Of a DNA stretch of 10,082 nucleotides, positions 1 to 10,082 are shown one piece after another. The number at the start of each line of letters is the position of its first letter. Position 1 is the stretch's first letter. The notes below the pieces were generated by a model, which saw only the letters and a program-made list of their open reading frames with translations, was not told the DNA's origin and searched no databases. Origin of the DNA: a virus (taxonomy: Duplodnaviria; Heunggongvirae; Uroviricota; Caudoviricetes); IMG/VR virus record IMGVR_UViG_2917855067_000003, positions 1-10,082 of that record. One strand, written 5' to 3'. Position numbers and translations under genes: made by a program.

Positions 1-1095
1 TTATGTTGCTACGGGTTCGTCGCATTTCGGTAGCCAGTCGCCGTAGCTTTCCTCTTTCAGCGACAGATTGGTTTGTATCCCCTGCTTAGTGTGCCGCTTC
101 TCATAATTCAGGCCGTACTCTTTCAGCATCATGGGCAGCCCCAGCCCGAACATTTTCAGGCTGAGTACGTTCCTGTACCCGTTAGCCTCCATATAGGCCA
201 GATACGCGTGATAGAGATATTTACGATAATTACGCGGGATGATGCTGGCATTCCCCATAAACATCCCGTTGGTCTGCGGGAGCATTTCCAGATAGCCGCA
301 AAAATCAAACGTAGGGTCAGCATCGCGCTTGATGCTGAGCGCCTCGTCGGAATTCTGCTGTGACTGGAGCAGTGCGCGGGCTGCCATCGGGTCGCTGAAC
401 TTCTGCATGAGCTGGCGCACAATCACGGCCAGCTCGCGCGCAATTTTATCCCTGAGCTGCGGGTCGCGTTCCTCCGGCGCAATTTGCTCCGGGAAGTGAA
501 TAATCACCCGGCGACGTGACACACCACCGCTGCGGTCGGTGAAGCGCATGGGGTTATTGTTCACTGCCAGAATCACCGCCGGAATGTGTGTTGAGTACGG
601 GTTCTGGTATTTCGGGTCAACCGAGACCGCATCGCCGCCGGTGATGGCCTTAAGCCCTGCGCCGTCACCGCTCCATTTTTCCTGGTCAGGCAGACGGATA
701 AGCGAGAAGCCAATCAGGGAGGCACGCTTGCGCGGGTCTTCCAGCGTGTCGATGTCGGCTGACGTGGCGTTATCTTCCCCGGCAAGCAATGTCGCGATTT
801 CAGCCAGAATACTTTTGCCACTCCCGCCGGGACCGGTCACTTCGAGAAAGAGCTGCCAGTCGTAACGGTTCGCCAGCACCATAAACAGCGCGGCCAGAAT
901 CACGTCGCGTTTTTGTGGATTTTTACCGGCTGCACGGTCGAGCCAGCGCCAGAAGTTCGGCGCGTGCGTCCCCAGCCGTTTCCCCTTCCACCGGCGGGGT
1001 AAAATCCACATCGCACAGCGTGCGCAGCCAGTGCGATTTGTGGTGCGGGCTGAATACGCCGCTTTGGGTATCGAGTACCCCGTTGCGAAAGCCAA
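1..1095 (-). CDS. alpha: P4 alpha-type primase/helicase, C-terminal segment (SF3/D5-like helicase and origin-binding part); homologous part is about 4..975, stop codon at 1..3
   Basis: ORF-track translation contains Walker A GPGGSGKS and the long C-terminal region typical of P4 alpha. It lies in a different frame from 923..2335 and overlaps it. The ATG at 1095 is an ORF-caller start, not necessarily a biological one. Confidence 0.8.
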   Translation of the reverse strand: MAFATGYSIPKAAYSARTTNRTGCARCAMWILPRRWKGKRLGTHAPNFWRWLDRAAGKNPQKRDVILAALFMVLANRYDWQLFLEVTGPGGSGKSILAEIATLLAGEDNATSADIDTLEDPRKRASLIGFSLIRLPDQEKWSGDGAGLKAITGGDAVSVDPKYQNPYSTHIPAVILAVNNNPMRFTDRSGGVSRRRVIIHFPEQIAPEERDPQLRDKIARELAVIVRQLMQKFSDPMAARALLQSQQNSDEALSIKRDADPTFDFCGYLEMLPQTNGMFMGNASIIPRNYRKYLYHAYLAYMEANGYRNVLSLKMFGLGLPMMLKEYGLNYEKRHTKQGIQTNLSLKEESYGDWLPKCDEPVAT

Positions 1096-2335
1096 TCAGA
1101 CGGCGCGCCGGTGTATCCTGCTGCGGAATAATCAGTTTCAGGGTCTCCACAACTGAGGCGATTTTCCCCGACGAGAACGGGGCGCGCAGACGCTGGAATA
1201 AGTCAGCCACATTCCGTGAAAAAGTGGCGACAGGGATATTTTTCCAGATGCCGTTTTCATAGCGGGACAGGAGCTGGCCGTTCGCATCCACTGCCAGCGC
1301 TTCGCCGTAATGCTCATGCACCCGCAAAGCCTTGTCGCTGGCGCTCATGGCGGTAAATTCCGCCTCGCTCATGGTATCAAACGGACTTTGCGCCGGTGGC
1401 CGGATGGCGTCATAAATCGCTTTGCGTGTGGCTTCCTCGCCGTACTGTATAAACGCATCATTCCAGTCACCGAATACCGGCGGCAGGGCAACAACGCCCT
1501 CACAGGCGTCTGCGGCCGCAGCGGCTTTACTCTGGCCGTCGCCGTTAAGGTCACGGTCGGCAGCGAGCACAATCTGACAGGCCGGGGACTTCTGACGGGC
1601 AAGGCTCGCCAGAGAAAGGAGGTTCACGGAGGACAGTGCTACCATGACGGTTTCCCCGGTCAGGTGATGCACGGTGAGTGCAGTCGCATACCCCTCTGCA
1701 ATCCACAGGCGTTTTCCGGCCTGTTTTTTCCCTTCGATGGTATGGCATGCTCCTTTTACCGCCCCGCCTTTCAGGGTGCGTTTGAGACCGTCAGAATTGA
1801 TAAGCTGAAGGTTAACCAGTGCGCCGGTATCGTCATACAGCGGGACAACCACATCACCGGCGCGGAACGTCACGCCGCCGGTTTTGTGTGTGGCCGACAG
1901 TACCGGACATTCCCGGTCGGGGAAACCCTTTCGGGTCAGGTAGGCGTTGCCGCTGGCCGGTCGGGTTTTCTCCATGAGCCTGACGGCCAGTGCGGCCGCC
2001 GCTTTGCGGTCAGCCTCCGTTTCAGCCTCTGCGGCCGCAATCACTTCCGGGGCAACCGGCGGCAGATTGCCGGTCACGGCGTTCACCTTCCCGGCGGCCT
2101 CTGAGGGAGTCACGCCAAACACTTTTTCTACCAGCTTAAGCCCGTCACCCGCGCCGCATTGATTGCAGAACCACGTCCCGCGCCCTTCTTTATCGTCAAA
2201 GCGGAAACGGTCAGAGCCGCCGCATACCGGGCAGGACTGATGGCGGTTTTTAATTACTTTCACACCCAGCGCAGGGAGAATGCGCGGCCAGTGGCCGCAC
2301 GCCTGTTTTACCGTTTCTGTTACGTTCATTTTCAT
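923..2335 (-). CDS. alpha: P4 alpha-type primase/helicase, N-terminal segment (zinc ribbon and primase domain); ends prematurely at 923 unless a frameshift is corrected
   Basis: Translation from MKMNVTETVKQ contains the zinc-ribbon motif CPVCGGSDRFRFDDKEGRGTWFCNQCG. The ATG at 2335..2333 is preferred over 2386 because AGGGAGA lies 9 nt upstream. The frame stops at 923 while the homology continues in another frame. Confidence 0.8.
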   Translation of the reverse strand: MKMNVTETVKQACGHWPRILPALGVKVIKNRHQSCPVCGGSDRFRFDDKEGRGTWFCNQCGAGDGLKLVEKVFGVTPSEAAGKVNAVTGNLPPVAPEVIAAAEAETEADRKAAAALAVRLMEKTRPASGNAYLTRKGFPDRECPVLSATHKTGGVTFRAGDVVVPLYDDTGALVNLQLINSDGLKRTLKGGAVKGACHTIEGKKQAGKRLWIAEGYATALTVHHLTGETVMVALSSVNLLSLASLARQKSPACQIVLAADRDLNGDGQSKAAAAADACEGVVALPPVFGDWNDAFIQYGEEATRKAIYDAIRPPAQSPFDTMSEAEFTAMSASDKALRVHEHYGEALAVDANGQLLSRYENGIWKNIPVATFSRNVADLFQRLRAPFSSGKIASVVETLKLIIPQQDTPARRLIGFRNGVLDTQSGVFSPHHKSHWLRTLCDVDFTPPVEGETAGDARAELLALARPCSR

Positions 2336-2349
2336 CGTTGTTTTCTCCC

Positions 2350-2670
2350 TCAGTGCAGTACCGGTGCGGTGATATGACGGGCGCAAAGCTCATCCATCAC
2401 GGCCAGCCCGAGAAAGGACAGCGACGGGGCAGCTTTCAGTGGTCCGACTTCCATTAAATCTTCCAGCAGGGCACAGGCAATCTGACGGCCTTTTTCCTCG
2501 CCGTGCTGGCGCAGGTAGAAGCCCTCCAGCTCGGCGGCAATGGCGCTTTCCAGCGCGTCGAGGGTGAGGTGCGGGTAGCGGTGCTGGCGTTCGCACAGGG
2601 TCAGCCATGCACAGGCCACTGCGCGACGATACAGCGCGGCGCGTAATACGGGCGGTAATGGCTTTTTCAT
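2350..2670 (-). CDS. hypothetical protein (106 aa), P4-like leftward operon, immediately upstream of alpha
   Basis: ORF with SD GGGGAGGG upstream of the ATG at 2670. Its start overlaps the stop of the preceding ORF (ATGA), and it ends 14 nt before the alpha start. Function not recognised. Confidence 0.6.
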
Positions 2671-2894
2671 ACGTTACCCTCCCCGGTAAGCCACTGCTGA
2701 TTGCAGCGTTCGACCACGCCGTCGAGCTGGGCGGTCATGAGGTAAATCACGGAGGTGAGCTGTAACTGCTGCGTCGGGTCACGACGAACGGTGGCGCAGT
2801 CCTGCACCTGCATCAGGTTGCCGACGAGCTGGCCGACGTTGCGCATATGCTCCAGACATTCGAGGTCACGGGCGGTAATGGTGGTGTGTCTCAT
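2667..2894 (-). CDS. hypothetical protein (75 aa), P4-like leftward operon
   Basis: ORF with SD GGAGGTG upstream. ATGA overlaps at both ends indicate translational coupling. Function not recognised. Confidence 0.55.
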
Positions 2895-3085
2895 GCGCGC
2901 ACCTCCGCAACCGGCAGACGGCCAGCGAACGAGAGGACGTAATCGCGAATGAGGGAAAGGCGTGCGGCGTGCTCATCACCGGCAACGGTGCGGAGCATAC
3001 AAATACGGGGGGTACGGTCTGCGCGACGAACAGCGGCAAACACAAAGACAAACTGCGGGTGTGACGGGGTGAGGGTCGTAGCCAT
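2891..3085 (-). CDS. hypothetical small protein (64 aa), first gene after the putative leader terminator
   Basis: ATG at 3085 is preceded by a near-consensus SD (AGGAGG, about 9 nt spacing). The same frame stays open up to 3442, but that extension crosses a terminator hairpin and lacks an SD, so the short form is preferred. Confidence 0.5.
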
Positions 3086-3288
3086 AAGGGCAACCTCCTG
3101 TGAATAGCGGTTATTGCCACCACCGGAGTTCCTACGCTCATGGGTGGTGACCCGAACGGGGGTAGGAATACCGGCTTCACAGAATACCGGCCAGCCCGAA
3201 AGCTGCCCCGCCCGGACCACCATTATCTGACAGGGGCTATGGAATAAGCACCACAGCCCGAAAAATGGGTGTGCCTGAGCAACGACGT

Positions 3289-3311
3289 AAAAAAAGACGC
3301 ATGGCGCGTCT
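3289..3311 (-). terminator. rho-independent terminator for leftward transcription (P4 timm-like position)
   Basis: On the minus strand: stem AGACGC / GCGTCT (plus 3295-3300 and 3306-3311), 5-nt loop, followed by a run of 7 U (plus-strand A-run at 3289-3295). Confidence 0.5.
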
Positions 3312-3367
3312 GTTGTCGCCTGTGAATTACACGGGTTCCTACGCCCGGCTGCCGATTTTGCGGCAGC
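3289..3367 (-). ncRNA. candidate small structured RNA (position analogous to the P4 CI / C4-type immunity RNA)
   Basis: About 350 nt lacks a convincing coding region between alpA/vis and the next SD-bearing ORF. The minus-strand transcript would start with a 7-bp hairpin (plus 3348-3354 / 3361-3367), contain further imperfect stems, and end at the terminator. A possible -10 (TATAGT, plus 3374-3379) lies just upstream. No homology check was possible. Confidence 0.25.
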
Positions 3368-3438
3368 GGGAAAACTATACCTGGAAACGGCGAAAAGAAG
3401 CAAGCCAGAAAAAGGGGCTGTTTGCTGAACGGTCATCA

Positions 3439-3705
3439 TCATGCGTCATAGCCCCGGTTACGTTCGGCAATGCGATCCGCCATCCATGCAGTGATTTCAG
3501 ACTGCGCCCACGCCACATTTTTTCCGCCGAGGGAGATTTGTTTCGGGAAGGCTTCCCGGCTGATGAGGTCGTAAATGGTCGAGCGGGACAGGCCGCACAG
3601 ATGCATCACTTCGGGCAGACGGATAAAGCGCTCGTGAACGGTATCAGAAACCGGCATCAGCGGCGCGGCAGGGGCAGAAGACGGGGAAGAAAAAGCAGTG
3701 TGCAT
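3439..3705 (-). CDS. alpA: AlpA/Vis-family helix-turn-helix regulator (88 aa), matching the size of P4 Vis
   Basis: Translation contains the AlpA-family signature ([47 protein letters not shown]). SD GAGG lies upstream of the ATG at 3705. Confidence 0.85.
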
Positions 3706-3766
3706 CGGGCTACCTCACAAAGTCCATACAGTGCCGGTCGTGTCCGTCCGGCTTCGGGTAGCTCCT

Positions 3767-3795
3767 TATTATGTCTATATTTTTCCTCAGGTCAT
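3767..3795 (-). promoter_or_regulatory. candidate sigma70-type promoter for the leftward alpA/vis operon
   Basis: Minus strand reads ATGACC, a 16-17 nt spacer, then CATAAT/ATAATA, about 55-60 nt upstream of the alpA ATG. The -35 is weak. Confidence 0.25.
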
Positions 3796-3834
3796 GTGAG
3801 ATTTTCGGGGAAACAAACATTGACTTTTCGCTCT

Positions 3835-3871
3835 GGCAAACAAAGGCAAACGCTGGCAAACATATGCAAAT
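3835..3871. promoter_or_regulatory. four direct repeats at exact 10-bp phasing (GGCAAAC x3 and TGCAAAT); candidate regulator binding array
   Basis: GGCAAAC at 3835-3841, 3845-3851 and 3855-3861; TGCAAAT at 3865-3871. They sit in the divergent control region between alpA/vis and sid. Confidence 0.4.
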
Positions 3872-3873
3872 CA

Positions 3874-3889
3874 CTGCATTACAATGCAG
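3874..3889. promoter_or_regulatory. perfect palindrome CTGCATT-AC-AATGCAG; candidate operator
   Basis: 7-bp inverted arms with a 2-bp spacer, directly after the phased repeats and before an AT-rich stretch. Confidence 0.4.
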
Positions 3890-3971
3890 CAATTTCTATT
3901 TCTTTTAGTTATATATTTTTCATTTTTAATCAAAATAAAGTCTAAATGCTATAACCAGAGCAAAACAGGAG

Positions 3972-4105
3972 GGTGAACAGTGGTGAACAGACGGTGAACA
4001 GTCAGACCCTCAACTATTCACCCTTTAACTTACTGTATTAATTATCTTTTTATTTAAGGTGAACAGTGGTGAATAGTTATAAGTAAAAAAATAAACGGTG
4101 AGTAA
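3972..4105. repeat. iteron array GGTGAACA(G), the reverse complement of the P4 type I iteron TGTTCACC; ori/crr-like alpha binding region
   Basis: GGTGAACAG at 3972-3980, 3982-3990, 3993-4001 and 4058-4066; GGTGAATAG at 4068-4076; inverted copy CTATTCACC at 4013-4021; degenerate GGTGAGTAA at 4097-4105. Spacing is 10-11 bp within clusters, and an AT-rich stretch (about 3890-3960) lies alongside. Confidence 0.7.
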
Positions 4106-4152
4106 GGTTTTCCTGCGACCTTTCTCTGGCCAGCCGGTTTTTAAGGTCTGTT

Positions 4153-4170
4153 TGTGCCAGCATTCTGACA
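4153..4170 (+). promoter_or_regulatory. Ogr/Delta box (TGT-N12-ACA) of a Psid-like late promoter
   Basis: TGT at 4153-4155 and ACA at 4168-4170 are separated by 12 nt. The dyad centre is about 80 nt upstream of the sid ATG, consistent with a -55 activator site and a short leader. A weak -10-like CAGAAT lies near 4205-4210. Confidence 0.45.
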
Positions 4171-4242
4171 ACGGCAATGAATCGTGTTGTTGTGCAGGAG
4201 GCGTCAGAATCATTTCAGGTTGAACACACGGAGAACCTGAAC

Positions 4243-4986
4243 ATGAAACCCGAACTCATTATCAAAGCCATGCAGACCGTTATCAGTAAACAGGATGAAG
4301 GCGCGGAACAACGCATTGCCGGTGCGCTGGCCGCACTTAACGAAGCAAAAGATGCACACACGGCCAGCATGGGTAAACTCAGCGACATTGAGGCTTCCAT
4401 TCAGCGTTGTGAGCAGGAACGACAGACCGCCCTCAGTGAAAGTGCACAGGCCGAACAGGACTGGCGCAGCCGCCTTCGAACTCTGCGCGGCAACCTCACT
4501 CCTGAACTGAAAGCTGAACACAGTAAACGTATCGCCAGCCGCGAACTGGCTGATGAGTTCACCGGTCTGATTACCGAGCTGGAGAAAGACAAAAGTCTCG
4601 CCATGCTTGGCGCATGCTCCTCCGGTACGGCTTATATCAGCGCCCATGAAAAAGCATTCACCACTTACGCCAACAGCGAATGGAAGAAGGTGCTGGCCGG
4701 TATCAGCCCCGCACTGTTACGTGCCTTCCTGTTGCGTATACGGTCGCTGGAAATGAGCGGAGAAACCTCATCGCGTGCGACCGCGACACGTGAGCTGGGT
4801 GATGCCCTGAATCTGCAGTCAGCCCTGTATCATTTTGATATGGAGCAGGAGCCGGTCCTGTCCGTAACGGGCATGAATCGCCCGGTCATAACCGGGGTTG
4901 ATATGGCGCTGTTAAGAAGCCCGGCCAGACGGATGAAGCTTGCCGCTGAACTGGCTGCAAAATCCCACGAACAGGCAGAGGGCTGA
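4243..4986 (+). CDS. sid: Sid-like capsid size determination (external scaffold) protein, 247 aa
   Basis: Assigned by position as first gene of the sid-delta-psu operon, by its charged, helix-rich composition, and by a length near P4 Sid (about 244 aa as I recall). Start at 4243 has SD GGAG 9 nt upstream; the ORF-track start at 4177 would lie inside the promoter. Confidence 0.6.
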   Translation: MKPELIIKAMQTVISKQDEGAEQRIAGALAALNEAKDAHTASMGKLSDIEASIQRCEQERQTALSESAQAEQDWRSRLRTLRGNLTPELKAEHSKRIASRELADEFTGLITELEKDKSLAMLGACSSGTAYISAHEKAFTTYANSEWKKVLAGISPALLRAFLLRIRSLEMSGETSSRATATRELGDALNLQSALYHFDMEQEPVLSVTGMNRPVITGVDMALLRSPARRMKLAAELAAKSHEQAEG

Positions 4987-4989
4987 ATT

Positions 4990-5229
4990 ATGTTTCACTG
5001 TCCGTTCTGCAAAAAGACCGCGCACGTCCGTACCAGCCGTTATCTGTCGGAAAACGTCAAACAGCGTTATCACCAGTGTACCAATATCGAATGTTCGGCC
5101 ACTTTCCGCACCATCGAGTCGGTTGACGGTGTGATACGTGCCGCACCGGAGAAACCTGACCCCACCCCGGTGACGCCGCTGCCGCCGCGTAAAGAACAGG
5201 GCTGCTACAGCTCGCCGTTCCGGCATTAA
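4990..5229 (+). CDS. delta: Ogr/Delta-family zinc-finger late-gene transcription activator (single-domain, 79 aa)
   Basis: Translation MFHCPFCKKTAHVRTSRY...YHQCTNIECSATF has the Ogr/Delta Cys4 arrangement (C4, C7, C30, C35). It starts 4 nt after the sid stop, with SD GAGGG upstream. Confidence 0.85.
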   Translation: MFHCPFCKKTAHVRTSRYLSENVKQRYHQCTNIECSATFRTIESVDGVIRAAPEKPDPTPVTPLPPRKEQGCYSSPFRH

Positions 5230-5244
5230 TCAGGAGAGAGACAC

Positions 5245-5811
5245 GTGACCACTATGACAATACAGCAGGCCTTTGAGGCCTGTCAGGCAAACAAAAACAC
5301 CTGGCTGACACGTAAAGCCGAACTGGCTGACCTTGAACTTGAATACCGTGAACAGCTCCTTGCTGGTGACGAACAAATCCCGCGCAAAATGCAGGATTTG
5401 CGCGACAATATCGACGTGAAAAAATGGGAGATTAATCAGGCCGCCGGTCGCTATATCCGCTCACATGAGGAGGTGCAGCACATCAGCATCCGCAACCGGC
5501 TCTATGACTTTATGCAGCAGCACGGCGCGGAGCTGGCCGCCACGCTGGCGCCTGAATTGATGGGGTATAATGAACAGCTTCCCGTAGTAAAACAGAGCGC
5601 CATGCAGCATTCGGTTGATTATCTGCGTGAAGCCCTGTCAGTGTGGCTGGCCGCAGGTGACAAAATTAATTATTCCGCGCAGGACAGCGACATTTTAACG
5701 GCCATCGGATTCAGGCCTGATGCGGCTTCGCGGGATGATAATCGAGAGAAATTCACCCCGGCACAGAACCTGATTTACACCCGCCGACGTGCAGAACTGG
5801 TCGCACGGTAG
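5245..5811 (+). CDS. psu: Psu (polarity suppression protein; Rho inhibitor / capsid decoration), 188 aa
   Basis: Translation (..IQQAFEACQANKNTWL.., ..NQAAGRYIRSHEEVQHISIRNRL.., ..KINYSAQDSDILTAIGFRPDA..) closely resembles P4 Psu as I recall it. A GTG start at 5245 sits 8 nt after SD GGAGAGAG; the alternative ATG at 5254 is too far from the SD. Confidence 0.9.
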   Translation: MTTMTIQQAFEACQANKNTWLTRKAELADLELEYREQLLAGDEQIPRKMQDLRDNIDVKKWEINQAAGRYIRSHEEVQHISIRNRLYDFMQQHGAELAATLAPELMGYNEQLPVVKQSAMQHSVDYLREALSVWLAAGDKINYSAQDSDILTAIGFRPDAASRDDNREKFTPAQNLIYTRRRAELVAR

Positions 5812-5857
5812 CACGCGAAAAAATCCCCGAAAATTCCGCTATTTTTCCTGAAAAAAG

Positions 5858-5884
5858 CCATGCATCCATAAGGTGCATGGTTTT
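5858..5884 (+). terminator. candidate rho-independent terminator of the sid-delta-psu operon
   Basis: Stem CCATGCATCC / GGTGCATGG (one wobble, 4-nt loop) followed by TTTT at 5881-5884, about 47 nt after the psu stop. Confidence 0.45.
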
Positions 5885-5984
5885 GCATGCAAATCCCCGT
5901 ATTTTATTTCCCCCACCACGCCAGTACCGGCGCGGCCTGAGCCGGTTCATGCACCTGCATTAAAAGTGACCTCTTAAGCGGGCA

Positions 5985-6003
5985 GGCGTGGCGGGGAGAG
6001 CAT
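5985..6003. other. cos-like site (resembles the 19-nt P2/P4 cohesive end)
   Basis: GGCGTGGCGGGGAGAGCAT matches GGCGAGGCGGGGAAAGCAC at 16 of 19 positions. That P2/P4 sequence is recalled from memory and not verified. The site is downstream of psu, where P4 has cos. Confidence 0.4.
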
Positions 6004-6269
6004 TGCGCGCTGGAATAATAATTAATTATTTATTTTCTCGCTCTGTGTTTGTCATTGATGAGTGGCAATTCGTTGACATGCTGGAGAGATATAATGCTGT
6101 TTAAAAGGAAAGAAGCACTTCTGAGGCTTTTAGGTTAGAGGGGAAGTTAAGGCCGCCTTGAGGCGGCGAAAATTAGTCATTTTGGGTATCGAGGAGTAAT
6201 ATTAGGCTGAATGCCACATGCTCCTGAATTAGAACCTTGAGTGCGAGTTGCTACATAAATAAATGGAGC

Positions 6270-6950
6270 TTAAAAATGATTAATCAAGATTTGATTTTTT
6301 TTAATTGCTCGTCTACTCCAGTGCTCTGTGATGTTTTGAGTGAAGTCGGGACGAACTATTTTTGCTCTAAAGTCCACTGCTTCAAGAGATTCTACTCTCA
6401 AATATATTCCTTCTGATATTTCATCGCTGAATTTTGATTTTTTTATATAAGAAGATAACTTGTTTAGTTCAAAGAAACCTTCGTCAAGAAAAGGAACGCA
6501 ATGAAGGTTTGCATTTGATATTATTTCGTTTCTTTGAGGAAGTGGTAAAAATATTTTTCTTTTCTTATCGAATACATCAAATGCTAAAAAATAGTCAGGT
6601 AAGCGGGTGTAGTGAATAGAATGTTTCGCATAACACCATTCCCCAAATATAATGTATTGGTCTCGAATGTAGTCAAAAAGGTTGTCGCGGTTGTAATTTA
6701 ACCAGTCAGGAAGCATTTTCCATTGGCCATTAAAAGGTTGATGTAAAAAAGAACCCCTATTTTGAAGGAGTAAGTCTGCATTACCATTAAAGGAAATGCC
6801 TAGATTAGCTCCGTCAATTTTCTCTTCTATTATGGTTTTTTTAGTTGAAAGCAATAATCGTTCTTTATCTGAAATGACCTTGTCATCCCTGACGTTAGGA
6901 TGGTAAAAAATATGTGGAGTGGACGGGAATTTATATAGTTCATCTTCCAT
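6270..6950 (-). CDS. Rnl2-type RNA-ligase-like nucleotidyltransferase (standalone adenylyltransferase domain, about 226 aa)
   Basis: Translation carries ligase motifs in the right order and spacing: motif I EEKIDGAN (KxDG), motif III FGEW, motif IIIa FDVFD, motif IV EGIYLR, motif V RAKIVR. ATG at 6950 has SD AGGAAG 9 nt upstream; the ORF-track GTG at 6977 has no SD. It is AT-rich and overlaps the upstream gene by 11 nt. Confidence 0.7.
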   Translation of the reverse strand: MEDELYKFPSTPHIFYHPNVRDDKVISDKERLLLSTKKTIIEEKIDGANLGISFNGNADLLLQNRGSFLHQPFNGQWKMLPDWLNYNRDNLFDYIRDQYIIFGEWCYAKHSIHYTRLPDYFLAFDVFDKKRKIFLPLPQRNEIISNANLHCVPFLDEGFFELNKLSSYIKKSKFSDEISEGIYLRVESLEAVDFRAKIVRPDFTQNITEHWSRRAIKKNQILINHF

Positions 6951-7479
6951 TTGGAAACTTCCTATTATATGTATCACTTATGAGTTTTTCGTCAGCAAAA
7001 TGAACCGTTATGCCTACATCAGCAAGAGATTCTTTCCAGCCCCACCATTTACTATCAGTTGCTTGAAAAATAGGCGGTTTGTCTACGTGTGCGTATGACG
7101 TGGCTACAAATTTTCTATCCGATAAATCAAAGTTTGTCAGGCCTTCATGTACAGGGAACTCCTCATAGCTAGTTTCGGTTTTTGTAATTCTTACGATGTT
7201 TTTATCAGGGAATTTCCATTGGTTAGTGTAAATCCATTTCATAAATTTATCACCAACGCCAGGGGCTCCACTCATGCTTAAATTTGAGCGATACTCTTCA
7301 ACTATTTCTTGTGCTTCATCAATAACTAACCCACCATTTGCAATTGCCTTTTCTATTATTTCAACACACTCTAAAACACAGCTTAGAATATCATCTGGAA
7401 TGTTTTTTATATCTGTGTGCATATTAGCTGTAACAGCAACATTTGTATCAATTAAAAAAGCAGCAGGTAATTTATTCAT
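6940..7479 (-). CDS. PIN-like domain protein (putative nuclease), 179 aa
   Basis: N-terminal AAFLIDTNVAV resembles the first PIN strand with its conserved Asp; further acidic positions (DEAQE, ATDSKW, ISDTY) fit the PIN pattern. SD GAAGG upstream; start overlaps the ATPase stop (ATGA). The domain call is by eye. Confidence 0.6.
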   Translation of the reverse strand: MNKLPAAFLIDTNVAVTANMHTDIKNIPDDILSCVLECVEIIEKAIANGGLVIDEAQEIVEEYRSNLSMSGAPGVGDKFMKWIYTNQWKFPDKNIVRITKTETSYEEFPVHEGLTNFDLSDRKFVATSYAHVDKPPIFQATDSKWWGWKESLADVGITVHFADEKLISDTYNRKFPNGR

Positions 7480-8861
7480 TTAGATGTACCTTCTTTTTCT
7501 TTTATTCTTCTTTTTAACGCTGATTTTGCTTGCTCTGTAATGTCTGTTAATTCATCACCAAAGAAATTATCTGGCCAGTTGAGGATATTTCCAAATGTAT
7601 CGATTTGCAACGGTGTTAATTTTGGGGTTGAAGATGAAATGTCAGAGAAGTACGCGGAAACTTCCTCGGATTTTATTTTGTCTTCTGCTATTCTCCTTTG
7701 CAGTCTGCGAAGGAAATGCTCTGAGTGAGTTTCTATAATTAGCTGTATGCCTCTTGATTTTCCATTTTCTCGTGAACGGATAACATCGATCATAACATCA
7801 GCAAGCACTGATTGTGCTTTTGGGTGTAAATGAATTTCGGGTTGTTCCATCAAAATTATTGAGCCTGGTTGAGCGTAAAAGCATTGTACTAGAACTGGAA
7901 GAACCTGAGAAACCCCAAACCCAACATCTGGAAGGTCTACCCACTGTTTAGAGCCTTTAGTTTTAACTTTGACTTCATATTCTTGACGATGTTCTGAAAT
8001 TGCTTTTACAGAAAAACTATCAATTAAGTCCATTTGTTTTAATTTTTCAGCGATGATTTCTTCTAATGGTTTATTTTTCTTTTTATAATCAAGGCCGATT
8101 CTTCTTTCTTTTGATGAAAGAATGGCGGAAATTGCATTTTCACCTGCATAACCTACGCTTTCTGGTGAAATTCCAGTCCATGGATATAATCGTTCAGGCT
8201 TATTTCTCATTGGCCCTAAGTAACATACTGAACGGAATAGCTTTTCATGCATTAGATTGATGTCTTGCACAAAATCAGCATTTTGATGGTAAGCTACGAC
8301 TTCCTCAGGGAAACCATAAAATCTAACTACATCTTTTATCGCCCAAACCCTACCCTTCTGTCGAGTTAGAGTGAAATTGTTAGTTTTGATTTTATAATTT
8401 GACTTAGCGTCACGAACAAGTCCTATAGATACATCATCTTTTTCTTTCTGATAGAATGTATATGAGAATCCATTGACATATAAGCTATTATTCTCAGCAT
8501 TAAAAGATATCTCAGATTTAAAATGGCATATTTTCGATAAGGATATAATGCTGTCTAATGATGATTTAGAGTATAATTCATCTATTGACCAAGAGTACTC
8601 AAATGAGATGTTCTTGTTAACGTCTCTCATGTTAACCATGTCTTGAAATGAGCCCAATTGTACTGCTGAGTTTTTACCTCCTGGGTAGAATGGGGTTTTT
8701 CTATCAGATGATTCAACCGTTTGTTTAAGCATCATGAGAAGCTGGCCAATACTAGATTTACCAGAGCTATTTGTTCCAAAGAAAAGAGTGATAGGTGACA
8801 TTTTGATTTCACCTGTATCAGTCCAAACCTTAAAATTTTCTACTTTTAATGTTTTAAACAT
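7476..8861 (-). CDS. ABC-type ATPase (AAA_15/AAA_21, OLD/RecF-like), 461 aa
   Basis: Walker A GTNSSGKSS near the N-terminus, Walker B region ILMEQPEIHLHP and H-loop ETHSEHF near the C-terminus, with a long insertion between, as in defence-associated ABC ATPases. SD AAGGA upstream; ATG is only 3 nt after the int stop. Confidence 0.85.
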   Translation of the reverse strand: MFKTLKVENFKVWTDTGEIKMSPITLFFGTNSSGKSSIGQLLMMLKQTVESSDRKTPFYPGGKNSAVQLGSFQDMVNMRDVNKNISFEYSWSIDELYSKSSLDSIISLSKICHFKSEISFNAENNSLYVNGFSYTFYQKEKDDVSIGLVRDAKSNYKIKTNNFTLTRQKGRVWAIKDVVRFYGFPEEVVAYHQNADFVQDINLMHEKLFRSVCYLGPMRNKPERLYPWTGISPESVGYAGENAISAILSSKERRIGLDYKKKNKPLEEIIAEKLKQMDLIDSFSVKAISEHRQEYEVKVKTKGSKQWVDLPDVGFGVSQVLPVLVQCFYAQPGSIILMEQPEIHLHPKAQSVLADVMIDVIRSRENGKSRGIQLIIETHSEHFLRRLQRRIAEDKIKSEEVSAYFSDISSSTPKLTPLQIDTFGNILNWPDNFFGDELTDITEQAKSALKRRIKEKEGTSK

Positions 8862-8864
8862 TTC

Positions 8865-10082
8865 TTATCCTTTGCTTTTAGATTTTATGATGGAAGCATT
8901 TTGGATTTCATCACCCCACCAAGCTAATAAATCACTACGTTGTTTTAAATAATTTGCACGGTTATATGCTCTTCTGACTTCATTTTTATCTGTATGTGCC
9001 AAAGATGATTCAATTATATCAGCGTTGAAACCAGCTTCATTCATAGTTGTACTCGCGATAGAACGTAATCCATGTGCGACTAATTTACCACCATAACCTA
9101 TTCGCTTCAAAGCGGCATTAGCCGTCTGGCTATTCATAGGTTGCTGTGGATCATTTCTACTTGGAAAAATATATTCTCTATGTGCACTGATTGGCCTCAT
9201 TACTTCCAGAATCTCTAATGCTTGAGTAGAAAGAGGTACGATGTGTTCCCGTTTTGCCTTCATCCGTTCGGCTGGGATCGTCCAGAGTTTGGCATTGAGA
9301 TCGATCTCTGCCCATCGTGTACCTGAAGCCTCAGAAGGTCGCACGAGAGTCAGAAGCTGCCATTCAATAAGACAGCGAGTCGAAACAGACAGATTCGACA
9401 TCACCAAAGAGCGCATTAGCTTCGGCAATTCTTCCGGCCGAAGGGTCGGCATGTTTTGCTTTTTTGGTTTCTCAAATGCCATTCCGACACCTGATGCCGG
9501 GTTTGCATCAATCAGGCCAGTGTTGACGGCGTAGATCATGATTTCGTTAATACGTTGTACCAGGCGGCGAACCGTCTCTAATGCGCCACGTGCTTTGATT
9601 GGCTCCAATGCTTCAACTATCGTTCTGGCCTTAATTTCCTGAACAGGTATTGCGCCTATTGCGGGGAACACGTCCTTATCTAAAGAGCGCCATATATCTT
9701 TCGCGTAGTCTTCAGTGACGCTTTTGCTCTTCATTTTGAACCAGTTGGCGGCCACAGTTGAGAAAATGCTATCCAGCTCAATCTGACGCTGTTCTGATGC
9801 CTGCTCTTGTTGCTGTTGCGGATCCATACCCTGCGCGAGTGTGGTTAAGTGCTGGTCGCGTATCTGACGAGCTGCTGCGAGAGTAAGGGCAGGGTATGAG
9901 CCGAGACTCAAATTAGTTCGGCTGCCACTGACCGGACGTTGATAGCGGAAGCGCCAGAGTTTTTTACCGGTGGTTTTGACGAGCAAGAACAGGCCGTCAC
10001 CATCATGAAGGGTGAAGTCTTTTTCCCGAGGTTTGGCTTTAAGGATTTCGTTGTTAGTGAGGGGGCGTGTGAGGCGCGCCAT
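8865..10082 (-). CDS. int: P4-type tyrosine integrase (405 aa)
   Basis: N-terminus MARLTRPLTNNEILKAKPREKDFTLHDGDGLFLLVKTTGKKLWRFRYQ is the P4-integrase arm-binding domain; C-terminus has HGLRSIAST and RRAYNRANY (catalytic Tyr). The start codon is the last 3 nt of the window. Confidence 0.95.
   Translation of the reverse strand: MARLTRPLTNNEILKAKPREKDFTLHDGDGLFLLVKTTGKKLWRFRYQRPVSGSRTNLSLGSYPALTLAAARQIRDQHLTTLAQGMDPQQQQEQASEQRQIELDSIFSTVAANWFKMKSKSVTEDYAKDIWRSLDKDVFPAIGAIPVQEIKARTIVEALEPIKARGALETVRRLVQRINEIMIYAVNTGLIDANPASGVGMAFEKPKKQNMPTLRPEELPKLMRSLVMSNLSVSTRCLIEWQLLTLVRPSEASGTRWAEIDLNAKLWTIPAERMKAKREHIVPLSTQALEILEVMRPISAHREYIFPSRNDPQQPMNSQTANAALKRIGYGGKLVAHGLRSIASTTMNEAGFNADIIESSLAHTDKNEVRRAYNRANYLKQRSDLLAWWGDEIQNASIIKSKSKG

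Follow-up and report, generated by a model that had tools for sequence, protein, structure and literature searches.

Our analysis points to a small gene in a P4-like satellite of Escherichia sp. E3356 as the nuclease effector of an anti-phage system. The gene lies on the minus strand at positions 6940..7479 of a 10,082-nucleotide stretch of viral DNA (IMG/VR record IMGVR_UViG_2917855067_000003, positions 1 to 10,082; hereafter the window), begins with ATG and encodes a PIN-fold protein of 179 amino acids that is presumed to be a metal-dependent nuclease. It is placed between the genes of an ABC-type (ATP-binding cassette) ATPase and of an RNA ligase. With a probability of about 70%, we read the protein as a catalytically competent PIN nuclease that acts as effector of a system of the HEC-03 (Hma-embedded candidate 03) type and is carried as satellite cargo. 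The assignment gives a testable function to a protein that is annotated as 'hypothetical' in public records from Escherichia, Klebsiella, Enterobacter and Serratia.

Fold and acidic residues of the PIN protein

The protein almost certainly adopts a PIN fold. Its AlphaFold2 model, built on a 40-sequence alignment, reaches a predicted local distance difference test score (pLDDT) of 95 and a predicted template modelling score (pTM) of 0.90, and shows five strand/helix units in PIN order within a Rossmann-like alpha/beta/alpha arrangement that contains five parallel strands; the best structural matches are VapC toxins. The original prediction, made by eye from the letters of the window, had proposed a PIN-fold nuclease at this place from an N-terminal LIDTNV motif and three downstream acidic positions. 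Both the open reading frame (ORF) and the motif (residues 9-14) were recovered, and the acidic positions proved real and conserved, although their actual number is five (D54, E62, D118, D121 and D142).

Homologues were collected with a word-indexed search (469 sequences) and with an exhaustive search, which returned a family of 1373 cluster representatives at 50% identity, 962 of them at E <= 1e-10. The top match of the exhaustive search, a protein of 3796 amino acids (P0121), was discarded as spurious: it carries tandem repeats that place 42 stretches on profile positions 48-114, and its score looks like repeat-driven inflation and not like homology. Among 136 full-length representatives the acidic residues are kept nearly throughout (D11 in 131, D54 in 133, E62 in 132, D118 in 129, D121 in 134 and D142 in 134), and E58 is not conserved. 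The order along the chain is that of the canonical D-E-D-D pattern, with D11 after strand 1, E62 (helix 3) or D54 in second place, D121 at the N-terminal end of helix 5 and D142 following strand 4. The PIN-order model and the acidic residues kept across homologues thus uphold the proposed nuclease; a predicted non-PIN fold and a lack of conserved acidic residues, which had been named in advance as grounds for giving it up, were both absent. The protein is probably an active nuclease.

Sequence-level traces of the PIN superfamily are faint. Against the PDB, neither the protein sequence nor the family profile returned more than noise. PIN_3 was the only Pfam model that recurred, in 8 of 44 diverse family members with a best E of 5e-4. 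Two relatives gave nearly full-length matches below threshold, P0484 to PIN_3 (profile positions 1-109 of 115, E 2.1e-5, 25.8 bits against a cut-off of 27) and P0408 to PIN (positions 2-117 of 120, E 0.0018).

Relation to HEC-03 and conservation of the gene order

The PIN protein matches the PADLOC model HEC-03A (PDLC04147) with an E value of 2e-25, residues 8-160 aligning to profile positions 3-148 of 159, and the ATPase matches HEC-03B (PDLC04148) over its full length with an E value of 1.3e-124. Both components of the system are therefore present by profile match, the ATPase with its DUF3696 tail being adjacent and co-oriented; HEC-03 is defined by two genes, whereas a third overlapping gene, that of the RNA ligase, follows here. 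HEC-03, a model of PADLOC-DB v2, was described as the combination of an ABC ATPase with a PIN protein 'similar to VapC'; this pair cut phage plaquing by orders of magnitude, needed both genes and was toxic on induction, and the main text of the preprint makes no mention of an RNA ligase (Payne et al., bioRxiv 10.1101/2024.01.29.577857).

The tested HEC-03 proteins come from Pseudomonas cichorii, and the window ATPase is 37% identical to its tested counterpart. In both cases a DUF3696-tailed ABC ATPase gene is followed by an overlapping gene for a VapC-like PIN protein, and the PIN proteins share the motifs (D/E)TNV, DEY, SDRKF and D(S/T)(K/D)W. The two clades differ in the length of the PIN protein, 157-162 amino acids in the tested clade versus about 177 in that of the window, and in the third gene. 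The tested clade (Pseudomonas, Burkholderia) is a true two-gene system in which the next gene is unrelated and on the opposite strand, whereas a ligase follows in 72 of 80 genomes of the window's clade. The PIN family of the window is consequently not new: it has been named and partly validated as HEC-03, and the window represents a separate, ligase-bearing clade. In the validated clade the ligase is dispensable. In three Pseudomonas loci (L095-L097) the neighbours of two-gene HEC-03 are a HigB toxin gene and genes like those of filamentous phages (Phage_Coat_B), a further mobile-element context in which the family occurs. The effector role that had been proposed for the PIN protein gains from the PADLOC matches and from the published phage defence that needs both genes, and by analogy with HEC-03 the protein is probably the effector of a defence system.

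The tight coupling to ATPase and ligase that had been seen in the window also holds elsewhere, with overlaps at both junctions that are conserved across loci. In the window the PIN start codon (7479-7477) overlaps the ATPase stop codon (7478-7476) by 4 nucleotides (ATGA), and the end of the PIN gene, stop codon included, overlaps by 11 nucleotides with the ligase gene, which starts with the ATG at 6950. The ORF list starts the ligase at a GTG at 6977 (235 amino acids), whereas in the public annotation, as in close homologues, it begins with that ATG (226 amino acids). All three proteins have exact public records from Escherichia sp. E3356: WP_135383227.1 ('hypothetical protein') for the PIN protein, WP_135383228.1 for the ATPase and WP_135383226.1 for the ligase. 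Relatives of at least 90% identity occur in Klebsiella, Enterobacter, Serratia and Scandinavium.

The wider survey covered loci in 80 genomes whose PIN protein is 49-60% identical to that of the window, drawn from Desulfobacterota, Chlorobiota, Nitrospirota, Planctomycetota, Spirochaetota, Acidobacteriota, Chloroflexota and other phyla. An ATPase gene stands upstream of the PIN gene in every locus (80/80) and an RNA ligase gene downstream in the 72 mentioned above; a 4-nucleotide overlap is found at 55 of 79 ATPase/PIN junctions and at 51 of 67 PIN/ligase junctions. Among the eight loci without a ligase match, two end too early after the PIN gene to tell, a ligase remnant is left in one, and in the other five the genes that follow are unrelated. 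The remnant (L054, 5327-5608), some 30 ligase-like residues (DNFYKFPSTPHL...), follows a PIN gene that is intact; this decayed ligase gene shows that ATPase and PIN can outlast the loss of their ligase. The same trio is found in more remote members (35-41% identity), on plasmids of Azotobacter, Aeromonas, Rhodococcus and Tistrella. On plasmids of Acinetobacter soli an HNH endonuclease takes the place of the ligase. In one of these, pAS843-2 (L088, 4535-5293), the HNH gene follows the PIN gene, an N-6 DNA methylase adjoins the cassette and the ATPase gene is broken into two parts; the third position thus seems exchangeable.

Our literature search found no description of an ATPase-PIN-RNA ligase trio, and recent preprints on nuclease-NTPase systems are silent on it. 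Its set of parts is nevertheless foreseen by an earlier computational proposal. A PIN classification (Matelska et al. 2017, PMC5499597) records, in one sentence, the proposal of Burroughs & Aravind 2016 that operons of PIN, ATPase, ligase and HNH constitute a conflict system whose ligase counteracts the nucleases; as summarised there, this was comparative genomics and computational only. These PIN_3/COG1569 operons share with the window the parts (PIN, ATPase, RNA ligase, HNH as alternative) and the logic of a neutralising ligase. That they belong to the same family as the window cassette is read from this one-sentence summary and from the weak PIN_3 matches.

A possible mechanism and its alternatives

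The ATPase gene (7476..8861, minus strand) encodes 461 amino acids with an AAA_15/AAA_21 core and a C-terminal DUF3696 tail (E 2.3e-29, 9.9e-20 and 5.6e-08, respectively, in Pfam) and is presumed to act as sensor or regulator. It also matches the NsnB model of the Menshen system (E 1.6e-64) and, more weakly, AriA, GajA and PtuA. The Walker A motif is canonical (GTNSSGKSS, residues 29-37, window 8751-8777). The Walker B region (residues ~336-342, window 7834-7856) reads ILMEQPE in place of hhhhDE, with Glu instead of Asp and Gln instead of the catalytic Glu; the MEQPE is common to the tested P. cichorii ATPase. Because an E-to-Q change in ABC ATPases normally traps the ATP-bound state, the window ATPase may act as a slow switch and not as a motor. 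In a metagenomic protein of 479 amino acids (P0261) the C-terminal part of the ATPase, with MEQPE and the DUF3696 region, continues in frame into a complete PIN domain, through either a genuine fusion or a sequencing slip where the genes overlap by 4 nucleotides. If real, the fusion supports a physical complex of ATPase and PIN protein; such a complex would also be in line with the tail binding predicted for Menshen.

The ligase gene (6270..6950, minus strand) encodes a stand-alone RNA ligase nucleotidyltransferase domain of 226 amino acids, Rnl2/Rnl5-like, with a presumed role in repair, as antidote or as co-effector. Its motifs K44-x-D-G, F-G-E104-W, E180-G-x-Y-x-R and R195-x-K197 show little or no variation among 32 homologues, so that the enzyme appears catalytically intact and resembles nick-sealing RNA ligases. 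Ligases of that kind join 3'-OH and 5'-phosphate ends, and metal-dependent PIN nucleases generally leave 3'-OH/5'-phosphate ends. Since the products of the one are the substrates of the other, no end-healing enzyme would be needed, and the cassette encodes none.

In the mechanism that we infer, in its complex, its RNA target, its trigger and its ligase role alike, the ABC ATPase would hold or regulate the PIN protein, probably through the C-terminal DUF3696 tail, and would sense a phage cue. This role of sensor and keeper is suggested by analogy with ABC-ATPase/nuclease defence systems, by the Menshen tail prediction and by the P0261 fusion. The activated PIN protein would then cleave RNA, most likely transfer RNA (tRNA) or ribosomal RNA (rRNA) as VapC-type PINs do, whereupon translation would stop and the infection abort. 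The co-translated nick-sealing ligase could reseal the 3'-OH/5'-phosphate breaks and so either buffer leaky activity or permit recovery. We somewhat favour RNA as the target; that the ligase is an antidote or reset has slightly less than an even chance.

The ligase-bearing clade might also have turned PIN protein and ligase into one cut-and-reseal machine instead of a poison and its antidote, which we consider unlikely. Anticodon nucleotides could be excised and the shortened tRNA sealed, beyond repair by the phage, with an outcome analogous to that of RloC; or the arrest of translation could be fully reversible and amount to immunity of a non-suicidal 'pause and repair' kind. In either case an anti-phage system would have host-encoded RNA ligation built in as one of its steps.

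Several points weigh against a PIN nuclease as effector of a HEC-03-type system. No Pfam, NCBIfam or PHROG model reaches its threshold with the window protein, a Foldseek search of its model against the PDB gave nothing significant, and hhalign of the family profile with one VapC sequence aligned the DTN motif alone. The residues are assigned to the canonical D-E-D-D pattern by their order along sequence and model, and their clustering in space is presumed. On the functional side, identity between the window PIN protein and the tested one from P. cichorii is only 29% (E 5e-20); phage protection was shown with that two-gene homologue and would extend to the three-gene subtype by analogy. The HEC-03 preprint itself shows that the genes are required, not the effect of a PIN active-site mutation or the target (bioRxiv 10.1101/2024.01.29.577857). 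Finally, the PIN-like N-domain of Menshen NsnC is published as inactive, serves there as an adaptor and is predicted to bind the DUF3696 tail.

This last point leads to the first of three rival explanations, in which the PIN protein is an adaptor that sits on the DUF3696 tail and recruits a variable third-gene effector, ligase or HNH, much like a split NsnC. The NsnB match of the ATPase and the HNH gene in third place in Acinetobacter soli speak for it. Yet the inactive PIN of Menshen is without the D-E-D-D residues, whereas the window family keeps them in about 95% or more of the 136 representatives. The validated HEC-03 clade also defends without any third gene, and a few close relatives without a ligase still keep an intact PIN gene. 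An adaptor of this kind is therefore improbable, and an inactive adaptor PIN is rejected on the conserved acidic residues.

Equally doubtful is a cassette that serves mainly as an addiction module of toxin-antitoxin type, stabilising satellite or plasmid, with the PIN protein as toxin and ligase and/or ATPase as antidote. The VapC toxins among the structural matches, the residence on mobile elements (satellites, plasmids, islands), the toxicity of HEC-03 on induction and the earlier proposal of nuclease-neutralising ligases, as summarised in PMC5499597, would all fit. Against this, no VapB-like antitoxin gene is present, the upstream gene encoding a 461-amino-acid ABC ATPase instead, and the homologous two-gene system lowered plaquing by orders of magnitude. 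The place of the cassette, moreover, is the hotspot of P4-like satellites that is reportedly a known location of defence genes. The two roles are not mutually exclusive.

That the PIN protein cuts DNA, for example phage replication intermediates or flaps, with the ligase acting on the nicked nucleic acid there, is hinted at by a PcrIIC1 match and by the HNH swap but has little to recommend it, the ligase being RNA-type and the PIN matches VapC-type.

Satellite setting and comparison with known systems

Gene content and immunity RNAs identify the window as a P4-like satellite of Escherichia sp. E3356. ORF calls and Pfam matches further reveal a P4-type integrase, Psu, an Ogr/Delta zinc-finger protein (4990-5229) and a primase. 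The tyrosine integrase (8865..10082, minus strand, ORF coordinates; Phage_integrase, Phage_int_M and Arm-DNA-bind_3) forms one flank of the hotspot, and the polarity suppression gene psu (5245..5811, plus strand; Psu, E 4.9e-88) the other. Satellite identity is confirmed by the P4 immunity RNAs at 3140-3380, all on the minus strand by Rfam: C4 antisense RNA (3140-3227, 78 bits), isrK (3290-3367, 77.5 bits) and the c4-a1b1 target (3328-3380, 49.6 bits).

The backbone (1-6010) shares about 95% identity with chromosomal P4-like elements of E. coli, and the E. coli matches stop at about 6010. There begins a cargo segment (6010..8864) that is set apart by this boundary and by its composition profile, with a GC content of 33-38% versus 48-63% in the backbone. 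At megablast sensitivity the segment has no match among 5426 complete E. coli genomes, and tblastn against phage genomes gave no match either. The ATPase-PIN-ligase cassette is cargo of low GC content, lying between int and psu at the hotspot of a P4-like satellite.

Integrase stop and ATPase start are separated by 3 nucleotides only (8861-8865), and all four genes run in the same direction; the cassette may be transcribed by read-through from int or from a promoter within the 3' end of int. One weak promoter-like site lies at 8911-8882, the promoter scan as a whole being no better than expected from shuffled sequence. About 100 nucleotides past the ligase stop, a GC-rich hairpin (GGCCGCC-TTGA-GGCGGC, 6148-6170) stands in AT-rich surroundings. 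The terminator scan did not call it, for want of a clear T-run; it could mark the end of the cassette transcript or the boundary of the cargo.

Among known systems, VapBC is rejected, as there is no small ORF between the genes and no VapB upstream, where the ABC ATPase gene stands instead. The window PIN protein also differs from VapC by an additional insertion (90-118) and a C-terminal helix, and has no significant sequence match to VapC. Menshen (NsnABC) likewise pairs a homologous DUF3696-tailed ATPase with a PIN-like domain. That domain, however, is inactive and forms the N-terminal part of a fusion with a separate nuclease, whereas the window PIN protein stands alone, looks active and keeps its acidic residues; with no NsnA (ParB/DUF262) gene in the window, this system is rejected too. 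PARIS, Gabija, Septu/retron PtuAB and OLD also couple an AAA_15/21 ATPase sensor to a nuclease effector, but the effector is a TOPRIM or HNH nuclease in place of a PIN protein, and an RNA ligase is part of none of them; as PARIS or Gabija the cassette is rejected, no TOPRIM partner being present.

Within the ABC-ATPase/nuclease defence systems compared here, none has a ligase of its own, and the interest of the cassette comes mainly from the role of this enzyme. Whether antidote, reset switch or part of the weapon, the answer would show how abortive-infection systems limit self-damage. The nearest relative provides the contrast: HEC-03 is a validated two-gene system, whereas the ligase-bearing subtype, known so far by prediction, is a much wider-spread clade of many phyla that adds an apparently intact nick-sealing RNA ligase.
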